A DNA stretch of 64,000 nucleotides from Patescibacteria group bacterium (lineage in GTDB: Bacteria; Patescibacteriota; JABMPQ01; JAQVVF01), in NCBI GenBank assembly GCA_041662665.1, contig JBAZSC010000001.1:321511-385510 (forward strand), read 5' to 3'. Positions 38,906 to 60,573 of the stretch are shown one piece after another. The notes under the pieces were generated by a model. That model searched no databases, was not told the DNA's origin, and saw nothing but the letters and a program-made list of their open reading frames with translations. Numbering within the stretch: position 1 is the first letter of the stretch; each line of letters opens with the position of its first letter. Both the position numbers and the translations under genes were made by a program.

Positions 38906-39493
38906 CTATCGGGTGGGGGGGCTCAGCGTGTAGGTGTAGCGACCGGGGGCGAAGCTGATGTGCAGCTCTTCCTGGGTCACCATGCCGTCGCGGGGGACTG
39001 GCACGTTCACGGTGTCGAGCCTGTACAGCTCTTCACCCTTCTCGTTGACGTTGGCCCAGACGTTGCAGTAGGGTGTGGTCTGGTTGAAGAGGTTGACGAC
39101 ACGATCGGGCAGCTTGAGATCTTTTCCTGTCTGAGTGAGCACCAGCTGCAGGAACCTCTTCCTGCCACGCTTATCCTCACGCCAGAACCAGAAGGCATCC
39201 GTCACCTTGTAGCCAGCCATGCCGAGCTCGCTCAGGAGTGCGCTCATGTCGACCATCTGCCGATTGGCAGCGATGTTCGTGCCGGTGTCATCCATGCCGT
39301 CTCTCTTGACACCGAACTCGATTCCGAGATCCTTTGCCTCCTTGCGGTGCTTCGCAGCCACCGCCTTTGCATCGTACTCCTTCTGAGGGAGCAGAGCCTC
39401 GATCCAGCCGCCGATTCCGGCGACCTTCACGAGGATGATGAGGGGCATGAGCCCCAGACCTTCGAACTGATCAACCAGGACCGTGCGGCTCAT
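38906..39493 (-). CDS. High-GC (about 60%) SD-led ORF of unknown function, 195 aa (module C)
   Basis: Start reassigned to MSRTVLVDQFEG, preceded by acaGGAGGtttccg. Codons mostly end in G or C. There is one hydrophobic segment (LGLMPLIILVKVAGIGGWIEALL). I recognise no family. The plus-strand ORF 38888..39583 is its antisense shadow. Confidence 0.65.
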   Translation of the reverse strand: MSRTVLVDQFEGLGLMPLIILVKVAGIGGWIEALLPQKEYDAKAVAAKHRKEAKDLGIEFGVKRDGMDDTGTNIAANRQMVDMSALLSELGMAGYKVTDAFWFWREDKRGRKRFLQLVLTQTGKDLKLPDRVVNLFNQTTPYCNVWANVNEKGEELYRLDTVNVPVPRDGMVTQEELHISFAPGRYTYTLSPPTR

Positions 39494-39542
39494 CGGAAAC
39501 CTCCTGTCAGTGGTGGCACTCACCCCGATTCCAGGGCTTTTC

Positions 39543-39571
39543 ATCATATCACAGCACCCTATTTTTGTCAA
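39543..39571 (-). promoter_or_regulatory. Sigma70-type promoter of module C
   Basis: On the minus strand, TTGACA (39571-39566), a 17-nt spacer, then TATGAT (39548-39543). Confidence 0.6.
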
Positions 39572-39657
39572 TGGCATTTTTGAAGTGGGAAGTGGGATCT
39601 TGGGATATGAGAAATGGGAACCTTAAATAAGCCAAAAAAAGATATTTGTGCGATTAG

Positions 39658-45789: not shown

Positions 45790-45972
45790 GCCGTTGTAGC
45801 TCAGTCGGCAGACCTGCCCGCCATCGCCCGAGCCATTGTAGCTCAGTTGGTAGAGCAATTCCATGGTAAGGAGTAGGTCACCGGTTCAATTCCGGTCAAT
45901 GGCTCAGGCGAGGGCAGGCGGGGTAATTCCATGGTAAGGAGTAGGTCGGCGGTTCGATTCCGCCCAACGGCT
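45790..45972 (+). tRNA. tRNA-Thr(GGU) interrupted between positions 23 and 24 (D-arm) by a 110-nt insertion
   Basis: The 5' part GCCGTTGTAGCTCAGTCGGCAGA (45790-45812) plus the 3' part GTAATTCCATGGTAAGGAGTAGGTCGGCGGTTCGATTCCGCCCAACGGCT (45923-45972) reconstitute a canonical 73-nt cloverleaf. It has acceptor GCCGTTG/CAACGGC, a D-stem with a G10-U25 wobble, and anticodon loop ATGGTAA. Confidence 0.6.
45832..45904 (+). tRNA. tRNA-Thr(GGU), complete, nested in the insertion of the outer tRNA
   Basis: GCCATTG TA GCTC AGTTGGTA GAGC A ATTCC ATGGTAA GGAGT AGGTC ACCGG TTCAATT CCGGT CAATGGC T: a full cloverleaf with anticodon GGT. Confidence 0.85.
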
Positions 45973-46226: not shown

Positions 46227-46336
46227 TTCGAAAATTACAAATGTCAAATTCCAAATTCCAAACAAATTACAAATCACAATATACAAAATCTTTGTAATTT
46301 GTTTGGAATTTGTTATTTGTAATTTTATTTAATCTC

Positions 46337-47089
46337 ATGTCTCTTTTATCACAGGAGCTAATTAAATTAGGTCTATCTGACAAAGAAGCAAAAGTATATT
46401 TGGCTTCATTGGAATTAGGATATGACACAGTTTTAAATATTGCAAAAAAAGCAGGGATCAATCGACCAACTGCTTATTTTATTTTAGAGTCATTACAAAA
46501 AAAGGGGATTGTTACAACTTTTGAAAAAGATAAAAAAACTTATTTTGCATCCGAATCTCCTGACAAGTTAGTTACATTATTAAATCAGCAAAAAGAAGAT
46601 CTTAATCAAAAGCAAAAAGAATTTGAAAATATTTTGCCAGAATTTAAAGCTTTATTTAATTTGCCAACAGAAAAACCAACTGTCAGATTCTTTGAAGGCA
46701 GGCAAGGATTGTTATCAATGCGCGAGGATTTTTTGAAAACTACAGACAAAAAAATTGAGGCAATGTATTGTCTAGATGATCTTAACAAAGTTTTTACTCC
46801 TGAAGAAAATGCAAAGTTTACAGACAGAAGAGCTGAAAAAAATATTGAAACTTTCGCTATATATACTTCAATCAATGGTCCAACAAAAAGACCAAAGGCT
46901 CCAGGTGAAAGACGTTTTATTCCTTTCGATAAATTTCCTGTGACTGCTGATATTACAATATATAATAATAAAGTTGCCATTGCATCTTTGAAAGGAAAGC
47001 TATCAGGAGTAATTATTGAAAATAAAGAAATTGCTAATACAGTACGTTCACTATTTTATTTAGGTTGGGAATCAGCCAAAAAAGTATAA
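46337..47089 (+). CDS. TrmB-family transcriptional regulator
   Basis: The start is moved to MSLLSQELIKLGLSDKEAKVYLASLELGYDTVLNIAKKAGINRPTAYFILESLQKKGIV, which is a TrmB-type winged HTH. Confidence 0.75.
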   Translation: MSLLSQELIKLGLSDKEAKVYLASLELGYDTVLNIAKKAGINRPTAYFILESLQKKGIVTTFEKDKKTYFASESPDKLVTLLNQQKEDLNQKQKEFENILPEFKALFNLPTEKPTVRFFEGRQGLLSMREDFLKTTDKKIEAMYCLDDLNKVFTPEENAKFTDRRAEKNIETFAIYTSINGPTKRPKAPGERRFIPFDKFPVTADITIYNNKVAIASLKGKLSGVIIENKEIANTVRSLFYLGWESAKKV

Positions 47090-47098
47090 GAACATGCT

Positions 47099-47963
47099 AG
47101 AAACTCGGTTTTCTATTAATCAAAAAAATAAACTTATTGTAAGTAAAAACAAGGTATAAAAAATAATCATTTAATTAAGATAAAACCGAGTTTCGCGTGA
47201 ATTCAAAAATAGAAATGCGCAAAACAAATTTTACAAATGAATCATTTTATCATATCTACAATCGCGGTACTGAAAAACGCGATATTTTTTTGCAAAATTA
47301 TGATTATTTTCAATTTATTAAATTATTAAGAAAATATAAAAATAATTTAGTTGAAATAATCTGCTATTGCTTAATGCCGAATCATTTTCATTTATTGCTA
47401 AAACAATTAAATAATAATGGAATCAGCAAGTTCATGCATTTATTAACAATAAGTTATGCAAAATATTTTAACAAAAAATATGATCATAGCGGAGTTTTAT
47501 TTCAGGGAAAATTTAAAGATGTCCAGATTTTGAGCTATATTCAATTGCTAAATATTTCAAAATACATCCATATAAATCCAGCTAAAGATCAGAATATTTT
47601 ATTAAAACAAAAAATAATTACATTAGAAAATTATCCTTGGTCTTCTTATAAAGATTATATAAATATCAGAAACGGAACATTATGTAATAAAACCGAAATA
47701 ATAAATTGTGTAGAAGGTAATTTTGTAAAAGAGTATAAAGAATTAATAAAGGCACATTTGATGAATTATAATGAGAGAAATTTGGATAAATTAATACTTG
47801 AATGAGTGAAATAGAAACTCGGTTTTCTATTAATCAAAAAAATAAACTTAATGTAAGTAAGAACAAGGTATGAAAAATAATCATTTAATTAAGATAAAAC
47901 CGAGTTTCATCATGTTGTAAATAATTGACACACGAAACTCGGTTTCTTCGGAAACCGAGTTTC
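47099..47963 (+). mobile_element. IS200/IS605-like (RAYT-type) Y1 transposase element with hairpin-forming flanks
   Basis: The transposase ORF is flanked by two 96-bp direct repeats (47099-47194 and 47813-47908). Each repeat is bounded by gaaactcggtttt ... aaaaccgagtttc. A third minimal hairpin gaaactcggtttcttcggaaaccgagtttc lies at 47934-47963. Confidence 0.75.
47197..47805 (+). CDS. IS200-like / REP-associated tyrosine transposase (HUH Y1 family)
   Basis: FYHIYNRGTEKRDIF, the HUH motif in CYCLMPNHFHLLLKQ, and YIHINPAK. The track start is GTG. An ATG 18 nt downstream is an alternative start. Confidence 0.8.
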   Translation: MNSKIEMRKTNFTNESFYHIYNRGTEKRDIFLQNYDYFQFIKLLRKYKNNLVEIICYCLMPNHFHLLLKQLNNNGISKFMHLLTISYAKYFNKKYDHSGVLFQGKFKDVQILSYIQLLNISKYIHINPAKDQNILLKQKIITLENYPWSSYKDYINIRNGTLCNKTEIINCVEGNFVKEYKELIKAHLMNYNERNLDKLILE

Positions 47964-47984
47964 AAAGAATGTGTTAATTTTCGC

Positions 47985-48245
47985 GCAAAATAAAACCGGG
48001 CAAAAGCTCGGTTAAGGGAACAAAGGGCAAAAAATCGATTCATCCAATTGGCGTTCATTTTATTGTCTTCTCCGTCAGGAGTTGGGGGAGTCGCTTGGCA
48101 CTTATAACTGTTAACTTTCAACTGTTAACTAGTTTTCAGTCGCCCATGACGTCCTCCTCTACCAATGGGGTAGAGGTTAGCATCGCCATAGTTTCAGGCG
48201 CGCCTTCCTCGACCCAGGGAACCAAAGATCAAGATGATTTATAAC
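47985..48245 (-). ncRNA. Candidate noncoding transcript with a GC-rich 5' domain
   Basis: It is bounded by a consensus promoter (48251-48278, minus strand) and a hairpin plus T-run (minus strand aaccgagcttttgcccggttttatttt, near 47990-48015). The GC-rich segment at 48135-48225 contains the hairpin cctctacc/ggtagagg and the palindrome aggcgcgcct. Confidence 0.3.
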
Positions 48246-48250
48246 AATGT

Positions 48251-48278
48251 ATTATAGCAAGCCTGTAGTATTTGTCAA
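48251..48278 (-). promoter_or_regulatory. Consensus sigma70-type promoter (minus strand)
   Basis: On the minus strand, TTGACA (48278-48273), a 16-nt spacer, then TATAAT (48256-48251). Confidence 0.6.
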
Positions 48279-48481
48279 TAGATTTGGACAATTTAGTGTA
48301 ATTAGTAATGAGTAACTAGTAATTAGGCGAAAAAACTTGCAAAATTATTAATACCTGATATTATCAAAATTGTCAGTAATAATAGACAAAATAAGCTAAA
48401 ATAGCTTGTTTTTATTTTGCCTTGTTTAAAGCAAAATATGTCAAAATATCGAAAAAGATAATAAATATTTGTAAAAACCTC

Positions 48482-48510
48482 TTGACATGATAAAAATAGA
48501 GTAATATAAT
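48482..48510 (+). promoter_or_regulatory. Perfect consensus sigma70 promoter (plus strand)
   Basis: TTGACA (48482-48487), a 17-nt spacer, then TATAAT (48505-48510). Confidence 0.65.
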
Positions 48511-48574
48511 GCAGAGTTCTAAGCTCAAACCAAGCTCATTCCAAAATGTCAATCAGAGCAAACTAGTTTAACAG

Positions 48575-48654
48575 TCTAACCAGTTTAGGTTAACCAGTCT
48601 AACTAGTCTAACCAGTTTAGGTTAACCAGTCTAACTAGTCTAACCAGTTTAACC
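48575..48654. repeat. 32-bp tandem repeat, about 2.5 copies
   Basis: The unit tctaaccagtttaggttaaccagtctaactag starts at 48575 and 48607, with a partial copy at 48639. There are no unique spacers. Confidence 0.85.
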
Positions 48655-48663
48655 GCATTTCCG

Positions 48664-48751
48664 TCTATTTATTAGAGGAGGTGAAATGGTCTCCAGGGAA
48701 TAAATCTTTTCTTTAGTCCTTGCTGAGCCACTTCGGCCTCTAATAAATGGG
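48664..48751 (+). ncRNA. Hairpin-closed structured element containing an SD-led 5-codon mini-ORF
   Basis: A 15-bp closing stem: tctatttattagagg (48664-48678) pairs with cctctaataaatggg (48737-48751). Inside is aGGAGGtgaaATGgtctccagggaaTAA (MVSRE), with an inner stem caggga/tccttg and a cttcgg loop. Confidence 0.35.
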
Positions 48752-48974
48752 CAGAATGAAATTTCCAATTACCAATTTCCAATTCACAATAAATTTTCAA
48801 TAAGCAATTTTCAATGACGACAGTGACGATTTGAAAATTAGTAATTGGTCATTTATTGTAAATTGATAATTGGAAATTAGAGATATGTAATCAGTAACTA
48901 GTAATCAAAAAATTGATTCCTAAATACTGATTGCGTGCGAGAGGGGACCAAGAGTCCTCGAGGAGGAAAGGACA

Positions 48975-49196
48975 ATGGCGAATTGCATCATCTGCCACCA
49001 GCGCGTTGCGAGCGGCGGTGACCGGCATGCCAAGGGGCAGTGTCCGGCGAAGAAGAAGGAGCGCGAGCAGAAGGAGAACGAGGTGCAGGCCGGCGATCTC
49101 GCGACCCCGGGTCGCGGAGACGTCGTGCCGCTGGCCGGCAAGACCAGCACCCAGCTCTCCAACAAGGGCAAGTCCCGGGGGTCCAAGTCGGGCTGA
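48975..49196 (+). CDS. High-GC SD-led small basic protein, 73 aa (module A)
   Basis: The SD cGAGGAGGaaaggaca precedes the ATG. Of the overlapping ORFs here, this is the frame I picked because its codons mostly end in G or C. The protein is MANCIICHQRV...GQCPAKKKEREQKE... I recognise no family. Confidence 0.55.
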   Translation: MANCIICHQRVASGGDRHAKGQCPAKKKEREQKENEVQAGDLATPGRGDVVPLAGKTSTQLSNKGKSRGSKSG

Positions 49197-49392
49197 GCCT
49201 GACACGACCCACAAGACGAGCCCAAGTACTAGGTTCTAGTGTCGTTCCGTTTCATCCCCAAGTTCCCCAGATTTTTCTTCAGTTTTCCGCCAGTACCTTC
49301 CATGCCAGACTCTTGTCTGGCCCCACCTGAAATAATAATGATTACATTGTTATTTGAGGCGGTACATTAAAAAATGATCAATTTACAATTTT

Positions 49393-49547
49393 TCACCCTT
49401 CGGGTGACCACCCGCAGGGTGGCAATAAATTACCAATTACCAATTTTCAAAGCGACGATGGTCGTAATTGGAAATTGTTCATTGAAAATTTATTGGAAAT
49501 TGCAAAATTGGTAATTGCCACCCTACGGGTGGTCACCCGAAGGGTGA
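49393..49547. repeat. About 155-nt composite inverted repeat with GC-rich self-complementary ends
   Basis: tcacccttcgggtgaccacccgcagggtggcaa ... ttgccaccctacgggtggtcacccgaagggtga. The AT-rich ccaatt/aattgg words sit in the middle. Confidence 0.8.
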
Positions 49548-49639
49548 GAAATTAGGGTTTGCGGTAAAGCAAAGATCTTAAAAAAGATTTTCGCCTTGCT
49601 GCAAAGTGCAGCCTATAGCAGAGAAGGAAAAGTAAACGA

Positions 49640-49816
49640 TGAACGATCAGATGGACGCGGCGGACCGGCGGATCATGGACGAAACGACTGTTCGGCTCGA
49701 AGGCCGGCAGGTCAAGTCCAGCCAGGGAGCTGGTTCCAGGTCGGCAGAAGTGCCAATCTGGAAGATCCGCGCGAGCCGTCGTGCTCTCCCCGCCATGGCA
49801 GTCTACGGCGACTAGA
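49640..49816 (+). CDS. Possible high-GC small ORF, 58 aa (module B)
   Basis: Below the ORF-track length cut-off. ATG at 49640 with only a weak SD (agaaGGAaaagtaaacg). The protein is MNDQMDAADRRIMDETTVRLEGRQVKSS..., and the frame has mostly G/C-ending codons. Confidence 0.35.
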
Positions 49817-50061
49817 CCTACCCCCAACTCTTCAGTTTTCCGCTCGTACCCTCCTGTGGTCACTTTTCGTGGCCACCTCAGCTTAAGCAACGATGTGATC
49901 GTTGAGTAAGTAGAGAACGTTACAAAATTATCAATTTCCAATTTACAATTCTCAATAAATTTTCAATGAACGATTTCCAATGGCGATACTCGGTCTGAAA
50001 ATTGAAAATTGGTAATTTATTGGAAATTGTAAAATTGATAATTGGAAATTAAATCTAGCTT

Positions 50062-50106
50062 TCAGCAGTTTGCCTCAAATTATTTTGAGACACACTATTG
50101 ATAGCT
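50062..50106 (+). promoter_or_regulatory. Conserved ~45-nt leader element, copy 1
   Basis: tcagcagtttgcctcaaattattttgagacacactattgatagc. It is about 80% identical to copy 2 and contains the hairpin ctcaaa/tttgag. Confidence 0.45.
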
Positions 50107-50148
50107 ACATCTCGTCCTTTCACCAACTGAAGCACACAAGGAGGAAAA

Positions 50149-50814
50149 ATGCCAAGTAAAGACAAGCCAAGACATGTTTTTGTTAATTGCTTGTTTCATG
50201 AAAACGAAAGGCTTACAGTCACCAACAAGGATGGTGAATTAAAAGCCTGGGGATTTGATGGCGATGTAATAAGTATCATCTCGGAATCCATGTTGCTTAG
50301 CATATCGGGTTCCAATCTGCAACTTGATAAAAGAAAAAAAGCATTGTGTAGATATTTAAAGCTTTTCTTCAACGAAGGAAAACAACCTCCAGCAATTTGT
50401 TTTGAGCATGCAAGGAAGTTGGAATCTGTGTTGTTGCAAATGCGACGATTTCTTCCTAAGGAAAAAGCTAATGTCCAGATTTCTATGATTCCATATCAAG
50501 AAAGTCTGGATAAATGGGCAATCTGGGTAGCCGAAGTAAAAAGAAATAGAGATATTGAAGCTACGAGATTGTGGCGTGAGATTATTTCTAAGCATTTTCC
50601 AGATGATGAAAGTATTGCAGACGAGCAAGACGCAAAAGTGCTTGCTGATCGTCTGTCTTCTGAATGTGTTAGAGAATTATTTGATAAGATACGCAATACT
50701 GCACTTTACCGCAAATCAGAAAAATCTGAATTGCTGAAACAGATCGGATTGTACTTAGCAGAAAAAGCGTATGAAGAAGCAAAAATAAAACATGAAATAG
50801 ATTCTTGGAAGTAG
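50149..50814 (+). CDS. Hypothetical protein, 221 aa; SD-led cassette gene
   Basis: The SD cAAGGAGGaaaa precedes the ATG. GC content is intermediate. I recognise no family. Confidence 0.6.
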   Translation: MPSKDKPRHVFVNCLFHENERLTVTNKDGELKAWGFDGDVISIISESMLLSISGSNLQLDKRKKALCRYLKLFFNEGKQPPAICFEHARKLESVLLQMRRFLPKEKANVQISMIPYQESLDKWAIWVAEVKRNRDIEATRLWREIISKHFPDDESIADEQDAKVLADRLSSECVRELFDKIRNTALYRKSEKSELLKQIGLYLAEKAYEEAKIKHEIDSWK

Positions 50815-50943
50815 ATGACTGCATTTTAACCTCTGTATGTTTCCAGTTTTTATCAAGTTTTTAATGAATAATTTGCAATAGTTTGAAAATTAATTCATTG
50901 AAAATTTAATAAAAATTAATAATTAGAAATTAAAAATTCGCTG

Positions 50944-50987
50944 TCAGCCTTTTGCCTCAAATCATTTGGAGACAAAAGATTGATAGC
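50944..50987 (+). promoter_or_regulatory. Conserved ~45-nt leader element, copy 2
   Basis: tcagccttttgcctcaaatcatttggagacaaaagattgatagc. It lies upstream of high-GC module D. Confidence 0.45.
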
Positions 50988-51247
50988 CTGTCCCGTACTA
51001 TGTTTCTGGTGAATATAAAAAAACATTGATTACTTTAGGAATTTAATCAATGCAACAAACAATATTTATTAGATACTTAGTATGGGATTAATGCTAGAAC
51101 ACTGACAACTTGGAAGGTAAAAATAATAGTCAAAAGTGTTAACTGTTAAGTGTTAATGGTTAACTGTTTGAAGTTGGCACATCGCGGCCAGGCAAGGCCG
51201 CGTTCGCGCGCGAGTAGATTCCGCTTGTGTCAGAGGAGGAGAGCGAC

Positions 51248-53515
51248 ATGTCGACCAACTGCGAGCCGAAGAGCGTCAGCACCGTCAACACCGTCACCGA
51301 GGAGAAGGAGGTGAAGCCCGCCCGGGTGCGCAAGCCCCGGGTGAAGGTCGAGAAGGAAGAGCAGGAGCAGTTCAACGAGGATGGCACGAAGAAGGATGTG
51401 AAGGACGAGGCCCCGCCCAAGAAGCGGAGCCACCACAAGAAGGTCGAGAAGTCCGTCGCCGTCGAGACCGAGACCGCCGAGCCCGCCCCGCCCGCCGAGT
51501 CCACCCCCAAGGTGGCGTCGGTGGCGGTGGTCGAGCAGCCGGTCCAGGTCGCCCCGCCCGCCGCGCCCCAGCCCGAGCCCCCCAAGAAGGGCGAGGTCGA
51601 GGACGTCAACGAGGACGAGGACAAGGACGGCGAGAGCGAGGGTGAGGACGAGGAGCAGGAGACCAGCGAGGAGGCGCTGGAGGACGCCCAGATCAACGAC
51701 CTGGAGTTCCAGAAGAAGATGAGCGAGCTCCCCCGGCACGAGCAGATCCGGCGGCAGAAGGCCCGCAACCGGGTCATCACGAGCAACCGGCGCAGCCGCA
51801 AGACGGCGGCGCAGGACAAGAACCGCGCGGAGCACAACGAGATGCGCGAGGCCGGGCGGCCGGAGGTGAAGATCACCATCCCGGACCCCCTGATCTGCAG
51901 CGCCCACGCCGGTGAAGTCCTGAAGCTCGAGGACGCCTACTCGCTGAACAGCAGCGTGGTCTACGAGCTGACCCAGGTGAGCCAGGAAGGCAAGACCGAG
52001 GCGCAGACCAAGATCCTGAAGTTCGTGGTGAGCAAGCTCGCTCCGCTGTTCCGGTTCAACTGCGAGACCATCCCGGCCTACTGCAAGACGGTGGTGGACG
52101 TGCTGGCGAAGAACATCGCGGCCGTCCAGCCCCTCATCGCGCACGAGAAGAAGGCGCGGTGGGAGAGCCGGATCGTCATGCCCTACGCGGCCGCGCTCCG
52201 GCACTTCGCCGAGAGCAAGGCCGCGGTCGAGGGCAAGCAGCAGAACGTCAAGGACCGGCAGAACAAGGAGGCGTGGGCCTGGTTCGACGAGAACATCGGC
52301 AAGTTTCACGCCGAGCTGGTCGGGCTGCGCAGCGTCGAGGAGATCGTCGGCAAGATCGACATCCTGAACGGCCTGAACGACAAGTGTCTCGACACCTTGC
52401 GCCACCACTTCCTCGAGACCCTGCCCGTGATGCGCTACAGCGAGCCCGGCAAGATGCTGGGTCAGCTGCTGCGCGAGCGGGGCAAGAAGTACGAGCAGGT
52501 GCAGATCGAGGAGCAGCGGGCCCGCAAGGCCGAGGCCGACGAGAAGCGCAGGAAGGAGGAAGAGAAGGCTCTGGCCGGGCTGGGCGAGCTCGAAGGGCTG
52601 TTCGGTGGCGAGGAGAAGCAGGGCGAGGAGCAGGACGAGGAGCCCAGCGAGCGTGACGAGAACGAGAAGCGGATCGGCAAGTGGCTGGAGAAGCTTGTCG
52701 GCGGGAAGATGCACAGCGCGGCCGGGCTGATGACGCCCAGCGCCCTGCGCGAGATCTTCGCCGCGGATCCGGGCGCCGAGGTCTACTCGGCCTGCCCGTT
52801 CAGCCAGCAGGCGCCGGGGACCCAGTACTCCACCTACGTGAACCGGAAGGGCGACAACGAGCCCCTCTTCGCGACGGTGACGGTCCCGACCCTCGTGGTC
52901 GAGACCGACGACGAGGGTCAACCGATCTGCGACGGCAAGGGGCGGCCCAAGCCGTGGATCAACCCCCGTACGAGCAAGACGCAGTACGAGGGGCAGATCG
53001 CGGTGCTGACGAAGCACGAGGCCCGCTGGGCCGCGTCGATCCGCATCCGCCAGATGGCCGAGGAGCAGGTGAACAACGGCCGGTACGACTCGCTGGAGGA
53101 GGCCATCAACGGCATCCATCAGGAAGTCAACCAGGCCAAGACCAACCTCTGGGCGGCCAAGAAGGAGTTCAACGAGGCCAAGGTCTCCGGCGACCAGAGC
53201 CGCATCGACGCGGCCGAGGAGCGCCTGAACCAGGCCAAGGAGGTCATGAACCATCTGAGCGACGACCGTCGTCCGTGGTACCAGGGGATGCTCGAGGGAA
53301 GCCTCGGTGTCCTCAAGTACTACGATCTCAAGAACACGGTCGAGATGCTCAACAAGCCCCGTGAAGAGCGGCCCGCCAAGCGCAACACGCGCGGCGGCGG
53401 GACCCACGGCAACTACGAGCAGGAGCAGTCCCAGGGCGCGAGCGCGGAAGAGCAGGAGGCCTTCTTCCGCAGCCAGAACAACCAGAGCTTCGCCAACAAG
53501 GCCCGCCAGGTCTGA
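51248..53515 (+). CDS. High-GC, GC3-saturated SD-led ORF of unknown function, 755 aa (module D)
   Basis: ATG at 51248 preceded by caGAGGAGGAGagcgac (the track start at 51227 is GTG). By my manual read, about 30-odd of ~755 codons end in A or T. The protein is K/E/Q/N-rich with an acidic/basic low-complexity N-terminal ~200 aa. I recognise no domain. Confidence 0.75.
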   Translation: MSTNCEPKSVSTVNTVTEEKEVKPARVRKPRVKVEKEEQEQFNEDGTKKDVKDEAPPKKRSHHKKVEKSVAVETETAEPAPPAESTPKVASVAVVEQPVQVAPPAAPQPEPPKKGEVEDVNEDEDKDGESEGEDEEQETSEEALEDAQINDLEFQKKMSELPRHEQIRRQKARNRVITSNRRSRKTAAQDKNRAEHNEMREAGRPEVKITIPDPLICSAHAGEVLKLEDAYSLNSSVVYELTQVSQEGKTEAQTKILKFVVSKLAPLFRFNCETIPAYCKTVVDVLAKNIAAVQPLIAHEKKARWESRIVMPYAAALRHFAESKAAVEGKQQNVKDRQNKEAWAWFDENIGKFHAELVGLRSVEEIVGKIDILNGLNDKCLDTLRHHFLETLPVMRYSEPGKMLGQLLRERGKKYEQVQIEEQRARKAEADEKRRKEEEKALAGLGELEGLFGGEEKQGEEQDEEPSERDENEKRIGKWLEKLVGGKMHSAAGLMTPSALREIFAADPGAEVYSACPFSQQAPGTQYSTYVNRKGDNEPLFATVTVPTLVVETDDEGQPICDGKGRPKPWINPRTSKTQYEGQIAVLTKHEARWAASIRIRQMAEEQVNNGRYDSLEEAINGIHQEVNQAKTNLWAAKKEFNEAKVSGDQSRIDAAEERLNQAKEVMNHLSDDRRPWYQGMLEGSLGVLKYYDLKNTVEMLNKPREERPAKRNTRGGGTHGNYEQEQSQGASAEEQEAFFRSQNNQSFANKARQV

Positions 53516-53621
53516 ACCTTCCAACAACCCGCCCCCGGGACAAGTCCAAGCTTTAAGCTTGTAACCTTGCTCCCTGGCGCGCGGCACACTACCATTCCAG
53601 TTCTTTCATTCCCGTTCCTTC

Positions 53622-53650
53622 AGAAGACCCTTACCGGTCTTCTTTTTTTT
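53622..53650 (+). terminator. Intrinsic terminator of module D
   Basis: agaagaccc tta ccggtcttct followed by T8. Confidence 0.7.
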
Positions 53651-53701
53651 CACTAAGTTATCAGTTAACAGTTGAAAGTTATAAGTTACGTCAATTTACT
53701 C

Positions 53702-53730
53702 TTGCCATTTTTCAAGATTCCTGCTATCAT
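53702..53730 (+). promoter_or_regulatory. Sigma70-type promoter of rpmG
   Basis: TTGCCA (53702-53707), a 17-nt spacer, then TATCAT (53725-53730). Confidence 0.5.
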
Positions 53731-53773
53731 TGCAGTATAGCTTATAACTTACAACTTTTAACTTATAACTTCG

Positions 53774-53929
53774 ATGCCACAAGATAATCTCATTAAATTA
53801 GAATGCACTGTTTGCAAGAGCATTAATTATTATTCTCGCAAGAACAAAAAAGTTCTTAAAAATAAAATTGAGATCAAAAAATTCTGCAAGAAATGCAAGA
53901 AACATACTCTACACAAAGAGACTAAATAA
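53774..53929 (+). CDS. rpmG: 50S ribosomal protein L33
   Basis: Below the ORF-track cut-off. It translates to MPQDNLIKLECTVCKSINYYSRKNKKVLKNKIEIKKFCKKCKKHTLHKETK, a typical Zn-ribbon L33. Confidence 0.9.
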   Translation: MPQDNLIKLECTVCKSINYYSRKNKKVLKNKIEIKKFCKKCKKHTLHKETK

Positions 53930-59106: not shown

Positions 59107-60573
59107 ATGAATCAAAATCCTACAGAAAATTTAAAAAAATATTTAGATTTAGCGAGAAAATCAAAAACTTTTGAATTTCTTAATATCTTAATATCAGAAT
59201 ATCCGAAGGCTAGTATCTATTTAGTCGGTGGTTTTGTGCGTGACCAAATTTTAGGTTTAGAATCCAAAGATTTAGATTTTGTTGTTACAAAAATTAAGGC
59301 AGATGATCTGAAAAAATTTTTAGGAAAATATGGTTCTGTAGAATTAGTCGGTGCTTCGTTTGGTGTTTTTAAATTTGTGCCAAAAGAATCAGAATTTATG
59401 AATCAGAAAATGGAAGCTTTTGATATTGCTCTTCCTCGAACAGAAAAATCTTTAGGAACTGGCGCATATCGAGATTTTGATGTCCAATCAGATCCAGAAT
59501 TGCCAATAGATGTTGATTTATCAAGACGCGATTTGACAATCAATGCCATTGCTTATGATATCAAAAATGATTCTATAGTTGATCCATATTTTGGTCAAAA
59601 AGATTTAGCTAATAAAATAATCAAAGCAGTTGGCGAGCCAAAACAAAGATTCCAAGAAGATTATTCCAGAATTTTAAGGGCAATAAGATTTGCTCTAAAA
59701 TTTAATTTTCAAATTGAAGATAATACTTGGCAAGCAATTAAAGATGACGCTCCAAAAATTTTAGATGCAGTTCCATTTGAAACAATTTCTAAAGAATTAT
59801 TGAAATCTTTAGACGCAAATCCAGTTAGATTTTTAGATCTTTATGATCAAAGCAAATTATTAAATATAATTTTGCCAGAAGTAGAAGAATGCAAAGGTGT
59901 TATTCAGCCAAAAGAATTTCATGAAGAAGGCGATGTTTATGAACATACAAAATTAGCGTTAACTTTTATTCCCAAAAATTCTACTGTCAGATTTAAACTA
60001 GCAACTTTATTGCATGACATTGGCAAACCAAGCACAACTAAAACTCCAGAAAAAGATGGTGTTGAAAGAGTGCGCTCTGACGAACATGCCGAAGTCGGTG
60101 CAGAAATTACTGGCTATATATGCAATCGCTTAAAATTGCCAAATAATTTATCAAACGAAATAGTTTGGCTGGTAAAATACCACATGTTTTTTGTTTCAGG
60201 AAAAGTTGAAGATATGCGTCCAAACACAATCAAAAAATATTTTATTGATAATCCAAAATTAGGTGATGAACTTTTGGATTTATATTATGTTGATACAAAG
60301 GCATCATTTGGTCCAACTCAAGAAAAAAATTTAGCAAGAATTACTGAAGTTCGCGATTATATTAATAATATGCGTGAACAATTTAGAAAATCAGAAATAA
60401 AAACTTTCCGACATGTTATCGATGGACAAGATATTATGAAAGAATTTAATTTAAAACCTGGAAAAGAAATTGGAGAATATTTGGAAAAAGCAGATAAATT
60501 TATTTTGGAATTTGTTACCAAAAATGGGGAAGAGCCTAGTAAAGAAGAAGTCCTAAAAAGTCTAAAATCCTAA
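59107..60573 (+). CDS. cca: CCA-adding enzyme / tRNA nucleotidyltransferase with HD domain
   Basis: YLVGGFVRDQILGLESKDLDF, RRDLTINAIAY and LLHDIGKP. Confidence 0.8.
   Translation: MNQNPTENLKKYLDLARKSKTFEFLNILISEYPKASIYLVGGFVRDQILGLESKDLDFVVTKIKADDLKKFLGKYGSVELVGASFGVFKFVPKESEFMNQKMEAFDIALPRTEKSLGTGAYRDFDVQSDPELPIDVDLSRRDLTINAIAYDIKNDSIVDPYFGQKDLANKIIKAVGEPKQRFQEDYSRILRAIRFALKFNFQIEDNTWQAIKDDAPKILDAVPFETISKELLKSLDANPVRFLDLYDQSKLLNIILPEVEECKGVIQPKEFHEEGDVYEHTKLALTFIPKNSTVRFKLATLLHDIGKPSTTKTPEKDGVERVRSDEHAEVGAEITGYICNRLKLPNNLSNEIVWLVKYHMFFVSGKVEDMRPNTIKKYFIDNPKLGDELLDLYYVDTKASFGPTQEKNLARITEVRDYINNMREQFRKSEIKTFRHVIDGQDIMKEFNLKPGKEIGEYLEKADKFILEFVTKNGEEPSKEEVLKSLKS

Follow-up and report, generated by a model that had tools for sequence, protein, structure and literature searches.

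How a tRNA gene comes to hold a complete tRNA gene with the same anticodon, and which of the two copies works, are the questions raised by positions 45790-45972 of the window (the whole 64-kb stretch of DNA analysed here, which is bacterial and AT-rich, with 34% GC overall). These positions are a copy of tRNA-Thr(GGU) that is interrupted in its D-arm by a 110-nt insert (45813-45922).

A tRNA-Thr(GGU) gene lies in the D-arm of a second copy

The insert lies between D-stem positions 23 and 24 of the outer tRNA-Thr(GGU) and consists, in order, of a 19-nt arm, a whole tRNA-Thr(GGU) and an 18-nt arm. The features of the locus are as follows.

45790..45812, + strand: outer tRNA-Thr(GGU), 5' part, positions 1-23; called by ARAGORN once joined to 45923-45972
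45813..45831, + strand: left GC-rich arm, CCTGCCCGCCATCGCCCGA; pairs with 45905-45922 in the MFE fold
45832..45904, + strand: inner complete tRNA-Thr(GGU), presumed working gene; ARAGORN, Rfam RF00005 67.9 bits
45905..45922, + strand: right GC-rich arm, CAGGCGAGGGCAGGCGGG; pairs with 45813-45831 in the MFE fold
45923..45972, + strand: outer tRNA-Thr(GGU), 3' part, positions 24-73; completes the cloverleaf with 45790-45812

The outer 5' part comprises the 5' strand of the acceptor stem, the 5' strand of the D-stem, the D-loop, G22 and A23. When the uncut sequence was searched, ARAGORN and Rfam matched the inner tRNA-Thr(GGT) at 45832-45904/5 (67.9 bits in Rfam) and missed the outer copy; at such a locus, standard tRNA finders report the inner gene only. 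Deletion of 45813-45922 joins 45790-45812 to 45923-45972 and gives a canonical 73-nt tRNA-Thr(GGU), which ARAGORN calls as tRNA-Thr(GGT) and whose cloverleaf energy equals the MFE (-27.1 kcal/mol). The nested anatomy described in the initial annotation was thus confirmed. The cloverleaf of the inner tRNA is likewise its MFE fold. The inner and the spliced outer copy are identical at 63/73 positions. Three compensatory pairs (4:69, 49:65 and 50:64) account for six of the ten differences, one further difference makes G10-C25 into G10-U25 and three are in loops, and the outer copy of the window is structurally intact except for G10-U25. The run of identity between the two copies, earlier put at 24 nt, is present and measures 23 nt (positions 26-48).

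The 183-nt sequence folds into one cloverleaf nested in another (-85.4 kcal/mol, z = -6.3), and none of 200 shuffled sequences folded as well. Folded alone, the 110-nt insert reached -57.9 kcal/mol (z = -6.0). The arms form a helix of 18 opposed positions, with 14 Watson-Crick pairs, one G-U pair and three mismatches (C x A, A x G and C x A), which passes through A(-1):U73 to join the acceptor stem of the inner tRNA. An earlier description of this helix as about 15 bp with one wobble and two mismatches was correct as to the helix and the wobble, and undercounted the mismatches. The helix begins directly at both junctions, and unpaired AGA and GUA are opposed at its base with no 4-bp stagger. 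A bulge-helix-bulge motif, in which two 3-nt bulges are separated by a 4-bp helix, was absent from the junctions in the MFE fold. A group I intron was rejected as well, as neither RF00028 nor another Rfam intron family was matched (gathering threshold or E <= 1), 110 nt is too short, and the site is D-stem 23/24 rather than the anticodon loop.

The nested architecture recurs in independent assemblies

The nested architecture was found in five further independent contigs, representing three lineages of one Patescibacteria clade. L001, a separate JGI contig, is identical in sequence to the window locus. The contigs L058-L060, from three more JGI metagenomes, have the same 23/24 junction, arms and architecture; L058 reads GGCAGA, then 110 nt, then GCAATTCC, and the flanking bases are not duplicated. 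The architecture is also present in L029, a Logan assembly of a more distant lineage, in which the contig stops inside the inner tRNA. The insert junctions are identical in the window, L058 and L029. Upstream of the locus, the DNA of the window and that of the outgroup L029 are wholly different, and the conserved block begins exactly at outer position 1. An assembly chimera was rejected because the same structure is found in six assemblies, and its presence in independent contigs rules out an assembly artefact in general.

An empty site and relics of older copies occur at the same locus in relatives

The locus lies in a conserved gene order, PSP1 - TPR - tRNA-Thr(GGU) - tRNA-Tyr - tRNA-Thr(UGU) - TrmB. 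Protein identities placed the lineages as ((window, L028), (L002, (L004, L012, L058))), followed by L029, then L006 with L007, and then L010. The close locus L012 was new and came from a genome scan with the PSP1 protein, in which the other two matches were loci known already; a metagenome scan with a clade-specific tRNA-Tyr pattern gave no additional locus. A search with TrmB homologues for the 3' half of the L029 locus returned L062, whose contig begins 34 nt ahead of the gene, together with L063 and L064, both of other lineages. In L028, the closest relative, the contig ends 36 nt past the TPR gene.

The more distant L007, L010 and L015 have plain single genes. In L002, one uninterrupted tRNA-Thr(GGU), reading GGCAGA directly followed by GCAATTCC, is a precise empty site at the same locus. 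The first 23 nt of this gene equal the outer 5' half of the window, and the gene departs from the outer type of the window at 49:65 and 50:64, both of them T-stem pairs. In L004, an intact gene with the same 23-nt start is identical to the spliced outer copy of the window save for C25, and it is followed by the 3' fragment of an older copy that is split in its T-loop by GC hairpins. An intact outer tRNA in related genomes, named in the initial annotation as evidence that would tell against its reading, is therefore present in part, as a close variant at the locus in L002 and as an all but exact match in L004.

At the GGU locus of L012, a 5' fragment carries a 52-nt GC palindrome in its D-loop (19/20), an intact tRNA is inserted at 33/34 of the older copy, and the same 3' fragment as in L004 follows. 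The L012 5' relic reads GGCAGAGCAATTCCAT and has no insert at 23/24. Downstream of the intact tRNA-Thr(UGU) of L012 lies another 3' fragment, which holds the reverse complement of the palindrome (50/52) at 35/36 and an inverted-repeat insertion of ~110 nt in its T-loop. A tRNA-Thr(UGU) relic of the L012 type is also found in L063 and L064. In L006, A23 and G24 of an outer tRNA-Thr(UGU) relic are separated by a 65-nt GC hairpin, and an intact tRNA-Thr(UGU) with a GIY-YIG ORF packed against it (Pfam E = 9e-18) lies at 34/35, in the anticodon loop of the older copy. This outer copy has further hairpins at 35/36 and in the T-loop, is without the 5' strand of the T-stem and therefore cannot be a tRNA. 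The possibility that the loop of the L006 23/24 hairpin is a D-arm remnant was dropped, as its fold is that of a plain hairpin.

The older copies in L012, L004 and L063 are fragments only, and an intact tRNA accompanied by a displaced 3' relic was the pattern in L004, L012, L063 and L064. The junctions vary, being precise in the window and associated with a 14-nt deletion in L012 and an 11-nt duplication in L006. The flanking genes of L004, L012 and L058 are 90-94% identical, and the locus is in a different state in each of the three, a sign of rapid turnover and not of stable inheritance. The tRNA copies are mosaics, indicating frequent gene conversion. Three states of a tRNA locus at 90-94% nucleotide identity make this clade a natural system for the study of tRNA gene turnover in reduced genomes, and also of gene conversion between nested tRNA copies. 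The contigs of L028, L029 and L006 end at or inside tRNA-Thr loci.

The arms belong to a family of GC-rich hairpins found at tRNA-Thr genes

The arms of the window and the palindromes of the relatives have common ends, CCYGCCCGC...GCRGGCGGG. The first 9 nt of the left arm, CCTGCCCGC, are also found in hairpins of L006 and L064, and so are the last 9 nt of the right arm, GCAGGCGGG, down to their U-G pair and C x A mismatch. The L006 hairpin at 23/24 (65 nt) contains CCTGCCCGC...GCAGGCGGG with both irregularities of the window included, and both arm ends are present in an L064 hairpin at 35/36. The remaining copies of the family start with CCCGCCCGC and finish with GCGGGCGGG, or with sequences close to these. 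The further copies number seven, among them those in L006 at 35/36, in L012 at 19/20 (D-loop), in L012 and L063 at 35/36, and in L064 at 35/36 twice. These seven copies measure 32-65 nt; like the arms they have 69-78% GC, and all fold stably (dG -17 to -43 kcal/mol). The hairpins sit in the D-loop, at D-stem 23/24 or at anticodon position 35/36 of tRNA-Thr fragments, and occur in either orientation, two of the L012 copies being mutual reverse complements (50/52).

Outside GC-rich protein-coding genes, the end motifs occurred only at tRNA-Thr loci (window and related loci, ~140 kb), and the 64-kb window holds one copy of the family. This family of hairpin insertions is previously undescribed. 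In the clade, 10 of 11 insertions lie in the loops of stem-loops (D-loop, anticodon loop, T-loop or hairpin apex). Neither the insertions as a group nor the junctions compared with the empty site showed a target-site duplication, and no common target or flanking motif was found across the insertion sites. Collectively, the restriction to tRNA-Thr sites, the placement in loops, the lack of duplication and the use of either orientation suggest a site-directed, probably mobile insertion. The specific hairpin sequence, mismatches included, is common to genomes that have only 45% identity between their TPR proteins, which argues for common descent of the element rather than de novo formation.

The inner copy is presumed to be the working gene

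The inner tRNA of the window differs from that of L058 at 2/73 positions, and both changes keep pairs (A4-U69 to G4-U69 and U28-G42 to C28-G42). The cloverleaf is the MFE fold in every intact copy, and all differences between inner copies preserve pairing. The outer copies of the window and L058 have three differences, each of which is the base carried by the inner copy; as read from these alignments, such outer-to-inner changes are the signature of gene conversion. In the outer 3' part of L058, CACCGG/CCGCCC breaks the T-stem pairs 49:65 and 50:64 (A49 x C65 and C50 x C64). Two of the five T-stem pairs are lost, the same sequence was obtained in three metagenomes, and the cloverleaf (-21.5 kcal/mol) is less stable than the MFE fold (-23.3 kcal/mol). 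The decay of the outer copy in L058, together with the dead outer copies of L006, L012, L004, L063 and L064, indicates that the inner tRNA-Thr(GGU) is almost certainly the working gene and the outer one a disrupted copy.

Other parts of the locus have changed little. The outer 5' part is identical in L058 and 1 nt different in L029. The left arm is identical in L058 and has two transitions in L029, one at a mismatch position and one making G-C into G-U, and the right arm differs in L058 at 1 of 18 positions, a C-to-T change that also makes G-C into G-U. All three arm substitutions are thus structure-neutral. In the 42 nt made up of the outer 5' half plus the left arm, no position differs between the window and L058, against ~82% identity in the flanking genes and 51-57% at four-fold sites; between the window and L029, 3/42 nt differ, and identity at four-fold sites is 38%. 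Both arms and the outer 5' half are thus conserved far beyond neutral DNA and on a par with working tRNAs. This degree of conservation is compatible with a recent spread of the unit into resident genes that still worked, or with selection acting on the entire nested structure, and it is the sole observation that leaves room for a function of the nested RNA.

Window genes and candidates for mobility

Genes of the window include bL33 followed by tRNA-Trp, as well as ATP synthase, RF1, S2 and TruD. A CCA-adding enzyme gene lies at 59107-60573, consistent with the tRNAs being without encoded CCA. A Pfam search of 41 proteins of the window, which is 64 kb of a contig of at least 645 kb, revealed no RtcB, EndA, other ligase or endonuclease families, homing nuclease or integrase, and no transposase, integrase or homing nuclease was linked to the 110-nt unit. 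One further feature was considered.

47197-47805: IS200/RAYT-like Y1_Tnp gene, 1.2 kb downstream of the locus; Pfam 40.6 bits, above the cut-off

Against the NCBIfam RAYT model this gene scored 45.6, where the cut-off is 80, and its flanking hairpins (GAAACTCGGTTTC type) differ in sequence from the insert arms. Viral-contig scans with the 5' junction, the arm/inner and the inner/arm sequences gave chance matches only, in coding regions of GC-rich phages, and therefore indicated no phage source for the 110-nt unit. When the 183 nt were compared by blastn with phage and plasmid collections, ordinary tRNA-Thr similarity was found, with no match covering at least 80% of the query.

Weighing the explanations

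If the outer gene works, the inner tRNA would be excised by RNase P and RNase Z or by RNase III, and the halves would be ligated into a tRNA-Thr or act as a two-piece one, held together through the acceptor stem and what remains of the GC helix. This would be the first bacterial tRNA with a tRNA as its 'intron' and the first bacterial split tRNA, and we regard it as very improbable. It is true that the spliced outer copy of the window is a faultless cloverleaf set apart from the inner one by three compensatory pair differences, that the arm helix begins at the junctions, and that the outer-specific G4, C17, G57, C64, C65 and C69 are kept in L058, as are G4 and C17, which belong to the 5' half, in L029, where the contig stops before the outer 3' half. 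However, L058 keeps the architecture despite its broken outer T-stem, and a helix rising from the middle of the 3' strand of the D-stem would disrupt the tRNA core. The bulge-helix-bulge motif is absent, as are RtcB, EndA and other ligase and endonuclease families among the 41 window proteins scanned. The inner tRNA has the same anticodon, so that a second product would bring no decoding gain, and every other interrupted copy in the clade is a dead fragment. The likening of the outer copy to a split or intron-containing tRNA, with Nanoarchaeum as the model, is not supported, given the missing motif, the bacterial host, the L058 T-stem and, in other relatives, GC hairpins in fragments that are unable to form any tRNA. 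A bacterial split or spliced tRNA in the source genome is unlikely.

The nested gene could instead be old, vertically inherited and under selection, with the arms and outer segments serving as a scaffold for processing or folding. The outer acceptor and D segments would then act as do the RNase III processing stalks on either side of rRNAs, and the relatives lacking the structure would have lost it. The distribution agrees with this in that the window, L058-L060 and the outgroup L029 all have the nested state, and L002, L004 and L012 fall inside that clade. So do the tRNA-like conservation of the outer 5' half and of the arms while four-fold sites are near saturation, the structure-neutral nature of all three arm substitutions, and the start of the conserved block exactly at outer position 1 below wholly different upstream DNA in L029 and the window. 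At least two precise losses would be needed, however (the exact empty site of L002 and the L012 5' relic, empty at 23/24), the three locus states of L004, L012 and L058 occur amid flanks that are 90-94% identical, in L006 a related hairpin occupies site 23/24 of another tRNA, and compensatory changes on both sides of the arms were not seen. We consider such a scaffold unlikely. Another explanation dispenses with a mobile element: GC palindromes or tRNA hairpins extruded from single-stranded DNA would be cut in their loops and mended by copying a homologous tRNA allele, so that an intact copy ends up nested in the remains of the old one. Insertions in stem-loop loops (10/11), the varied junctions (precise in the window, with a 14-nt deletion in L012 and an 11-nt duplication in L006) and the frequent gene conversion implied by the mosaic tRNA copies all suit a by-product of break repair. 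On the other hand, repair would have to account for hairpins of the same specific sequence and mismatches in genomes with TPR proteins 45% identical, and for identical junctions in the window, L058 and L029, and we judge it distinctly improbable.

The two alternatives already listed in the initial annotation, a disrupted outer pseudogene and a tRNA-derived mobile unit as the insert, are those that the comparative data favour. We lean, with some reserve, towards the explanation that the outer copy is non-functional and has been disrupted by a discrete, probably mobile, recently spread, tRNA-carrying unit of the palindrome family. Recent spread is favoured by the precise empty site, by the reuse of 23/24 in a different tRNA and by the three states at 90-94% identity. 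More specifically, and only tentatively, the 110-nt unit may be a self-compensating mobile element that homes to tRNA-Thr 23/24 with its own replacement tRNA. On the favoured explanation, the 110-bp insertion is a GC-rich palindromic element with a whole replacement tRNA-Thr(GGU) at its apex and with arms that are members of a lineage-specific family of GC-rich hairpins, and it would compensate for the gene it breaks by carrying the replacement. In the transcript, the two arms are predicted to form a helix of ~18 bp prolonging the acceptor stem of the inner tRNA, which would be released by ordinary bacterial enzymes, with RNase P acting at the 5' end, followed by 3' trimming and CCA addition, possibly after a cut by RNase III in the arm helix, and the two outer pieces would be by-products that are never rejoined into a tRNA. 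Were the unit mobile, it would represent a possible new insertion strategy, that of a small element able to occupy an essential RNA gene by virtue of the working copy it brings along, and it would reveal a hairpin-element family with a marked preference for tRNA gene loops.

Comparison with known systems

Among known systems, the hairpin insertions come closest to two groups, the mobile GC clusters and double-hairpin elements found in AT-rich genomes of mitochondria, for example the GC clusters of yeast mtDNA (PMC4478555), and the REP/RAYT elements. The likeness to the mitochondrial elements, drawn from literature descriptions, lies in short, GC-rich, palindromic and non-coding insertions in an AT-rich genome that differ in presence between close relatives, occur in either orientation and can be intragenic. 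Unlike GC clusters, the present insertions are bacterial, were found only in tRNA-Thr genes in the DNA examined, lie mostly in hairpin loops and have one form with a tRNA at the apex. REP/BIME elements (RAYT, IS200/IS605-type Y1) are likewise imperfect GC-rich palindromes that keep their mismatches and lack target-site duplications, and the Y1 transposase gene situated 1.2 kb downstream of the window locus matches the RAYT model weakly. In contrast, REPs are numerous and extragenic, whereas one copy is present in the 64 kb, inside a gene, and the own hairpins of the Y1 gene (GAAACTCGGTTTC type) differ from the arms.

The phage T4 SegB protein is a freestanding homing endonuclease encoded next to tRNA genes. 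Nucleases of this type and group I introns are, like the putative unit, selfish DNA that targets tRNA genes, and the GIY-YIG ORF of L006 lies against tRNA-Thr(UGU). A survey of Patescibacteria tRNAs places group I introns at 35/36 (PMC13011429), a position that also holds hairpin insertions here. Unlike these systems, the window unit has neither an ORF nor a ribozyme. We found nothing in the literature on nested tRNAs or D-arm insertions, the Patescibacteria tRNA intron survey included (PMC13011429).

The split tRNAs and non-canonical introns of archaea (Nanoarchaeum, Thermoproteales) are similar in form only, in the interruption of the D-arm rather than the anticodon loop and in the GC-rich helix that joins tRNA parts. 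They differ in that here the host is bacterial, the bulge-helix-bulge is missing, the outer copy decays in a sister lineage and the interrupted gene encloses an intact copy that shares its anticodon. The intervening sequences of bacterial rRNAs, which are removed by RNase III with no re-ligation, are likewise extra helices in an RNA gene, and the arms here would probably also be cut out. The fragments of such rRNAs stay functional, whereas at this locus the evidence points to a non-functional interrupted copy and a functional cargo. A MITE derived from a DDE transposon was rejected, since inverted-repeat arms are present but the junctions, compared with the empty site, show no target-site duplication. 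The relic of an integrase attL/attR pair was rejected because the window halves are complementary 5' and 3' parts around an intact gene, with no 3' duplicate; no integrase was found among the window proteins scanned. The tRNA-Thr loci of the clade consist of several layers of relics and hairpins, which break assemblies.

Threonine codon usage

The initial annotation had also linked the GGU anticodon to the use of ACC by GC-rich genes. The usage itself was confirmed, with ACC making up 23/37 threonine codons in GC-rich genes vs 5/129 in backbone genes. As an explanation of the locus it adds nothing, because the backbone genes need the same tRNA for ACU, which is also read by tRNA-Thr(GGU) and accounts for 45/129 of their threonine codons, and because one tRNA-Thr copy with a GGU anticodon at this position is standard in relatives.

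Inverted repeats and insertions at tRNA-Thr loci

Intact tRNA-Thr genes in related lineages lie beside relics, that is, dead fragments of an older tRNA-Thr copy. Such an arrangement was observed at the following loci:

L012 6663-6878 and 7125-7417, intact tRNA-Thr with flanking older-copy fragments
L063 290-580, intact tRNA-Thr with flanking older-copy fragments
L064 40-345, intact tRNA-Thr with flanking older-copy fragments

The UGU relics of L012, L063 and L064 each match the adjacent intact gene of their own lineage, though these genes vary among lineages. This likeness between relic and neighbour is concerted evolution. The 52-nt palindrome, a member of the GC-rich hairpin family that includes the window arms, is present in L012 in both orientations.

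A tRNA-Thr(UGU) locus with insertions was found on the related contig L006:

L006 11593-12190, degenerate tRNA-Thr(UGU) with insertions
L006 11695-11949, GIY-YIG ORF inside the degenerate locus

Position 23/24 of the degenerate gene holds a GC hairpin of 65 nt, and more hairpins are present at 35/36 and in the T-loop. An intact tRNA-Thr(UGU) begins 1 nt past the stop codon of the GIY-YIG ORF and is followed by an 11-nt duplication of positions 24-34. The locus looks like a nuclease-plus-tRNA cassette placed into a resident tRNA-Thr(UGU) gene.

At the upstream edge of tRNA-Thr(GGU), inverted-repeat elements end exactly at base 1 of the gene:

L012 6558-6665, inverted-repeat element
L029 975-1042, inverted-repeat element

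The L012 element is flanked by repeated GCCGTTG, which is the first 7 nt of tRNA-Thr(GGU). Because elements of this kind end at base 1, the DNA upstream of the nested gene is unrelated among lineages, up to position 1. Several short-read contigs of the clade also end at or inside tRNA-Thr loci (L028, end 1638; L029, 1143; L006, 12202), suggesting that repeats at these loci break assemblies and that databases under-represent such loci.

The region between tRNA-Thr(UGU) and rpmG, and the GC-rich islands of the window

In the window, 7.5 kb (46227-53775) separate tRNA-Thr(UGU) from rpmG/tRNA-Trp, a place that tuf occupies in many bacteria. This region contains a TrmB-like regulator, a Y1 transposase and GC-rich ORFs. 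Numerous AT-rich repeats of AACTGTTAAC type also occur there, surrounding the GC islands. The protein-coding islands of the window have 59-66% GC, compared to a genome background of 31-34%. They are listed with the amino acid identity of their L002/L058 homologues:

38906-39577, minus strand, GC-rich island, 65%
48975-49196, plus strand, GC-rich island, weak
49639-49815, plus strand, GC-rich island, 63%
51257-53515, plus strand, GC-rich island, 25%

The homologues in L002 and L058 are syntenic and also GC-rich (63-67% as measured in L002); for comparison, PSP1 is 87-92% identical. None of the four islands matched Pfam or NCBIfam. Their threonine codons are ACC (23), ACG (13), ACT (1) and ACA (0), and those of backbone genes are ACA (74), ACT (45), ACC (5) and ACG (5).

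Paired hairpins and the transposase gene were located as follows:

47197-47805, IS200-like Y1 transposase gene (Pfam Y1_Tnp, 40.6 bits)
49394-49422, GC hairpin CACCCTTCGGGTGACCACCCGCAGGGTGG, one of a pair with GCCACCCTACGGGTGGTCACCCGAAGGGTGAG
49518-49548, GC hairpin GCCACCCTACGGGTGGTCACCCGAAGGGTGAG, one of a pair with CACCCTTCGGGTGACCACCCGCAGGGTGG

The Y1 gene scored 45.6 against NCBIfam RAYT, under the cut-off of 80, and in L002 and L058 it is replaced by a 23S-rRNA-IVP/Avd-like gene. Hairpins of the GAAACTCGGTTTC type follow the Y1 gene (flanks 47813-47966). In L002 and L004, inverted repeats akin to these, CCCCGWACCAAGTTTCTG, adjoin tRNA-Thr(GGU) at its 5' end; in L012 and L063 they are found inside the UGU relic, within its T-loop. 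Between two GC-rich ORFs runs a long inverted repeat that is AT-rich and capped by the CACCCTTCGGGTGACCACCCGCAGGGTGG/GCCACCCTACGGGTGGTCACCCGAAGGGTGAG pair. This pair resembles the CCACCCTTTGGGTGGTCCCCCGAAGGGGGA hairpins by which, in L004, L012 and L063, the tRNA-Thr(GGU) relic is split in its T-loop.
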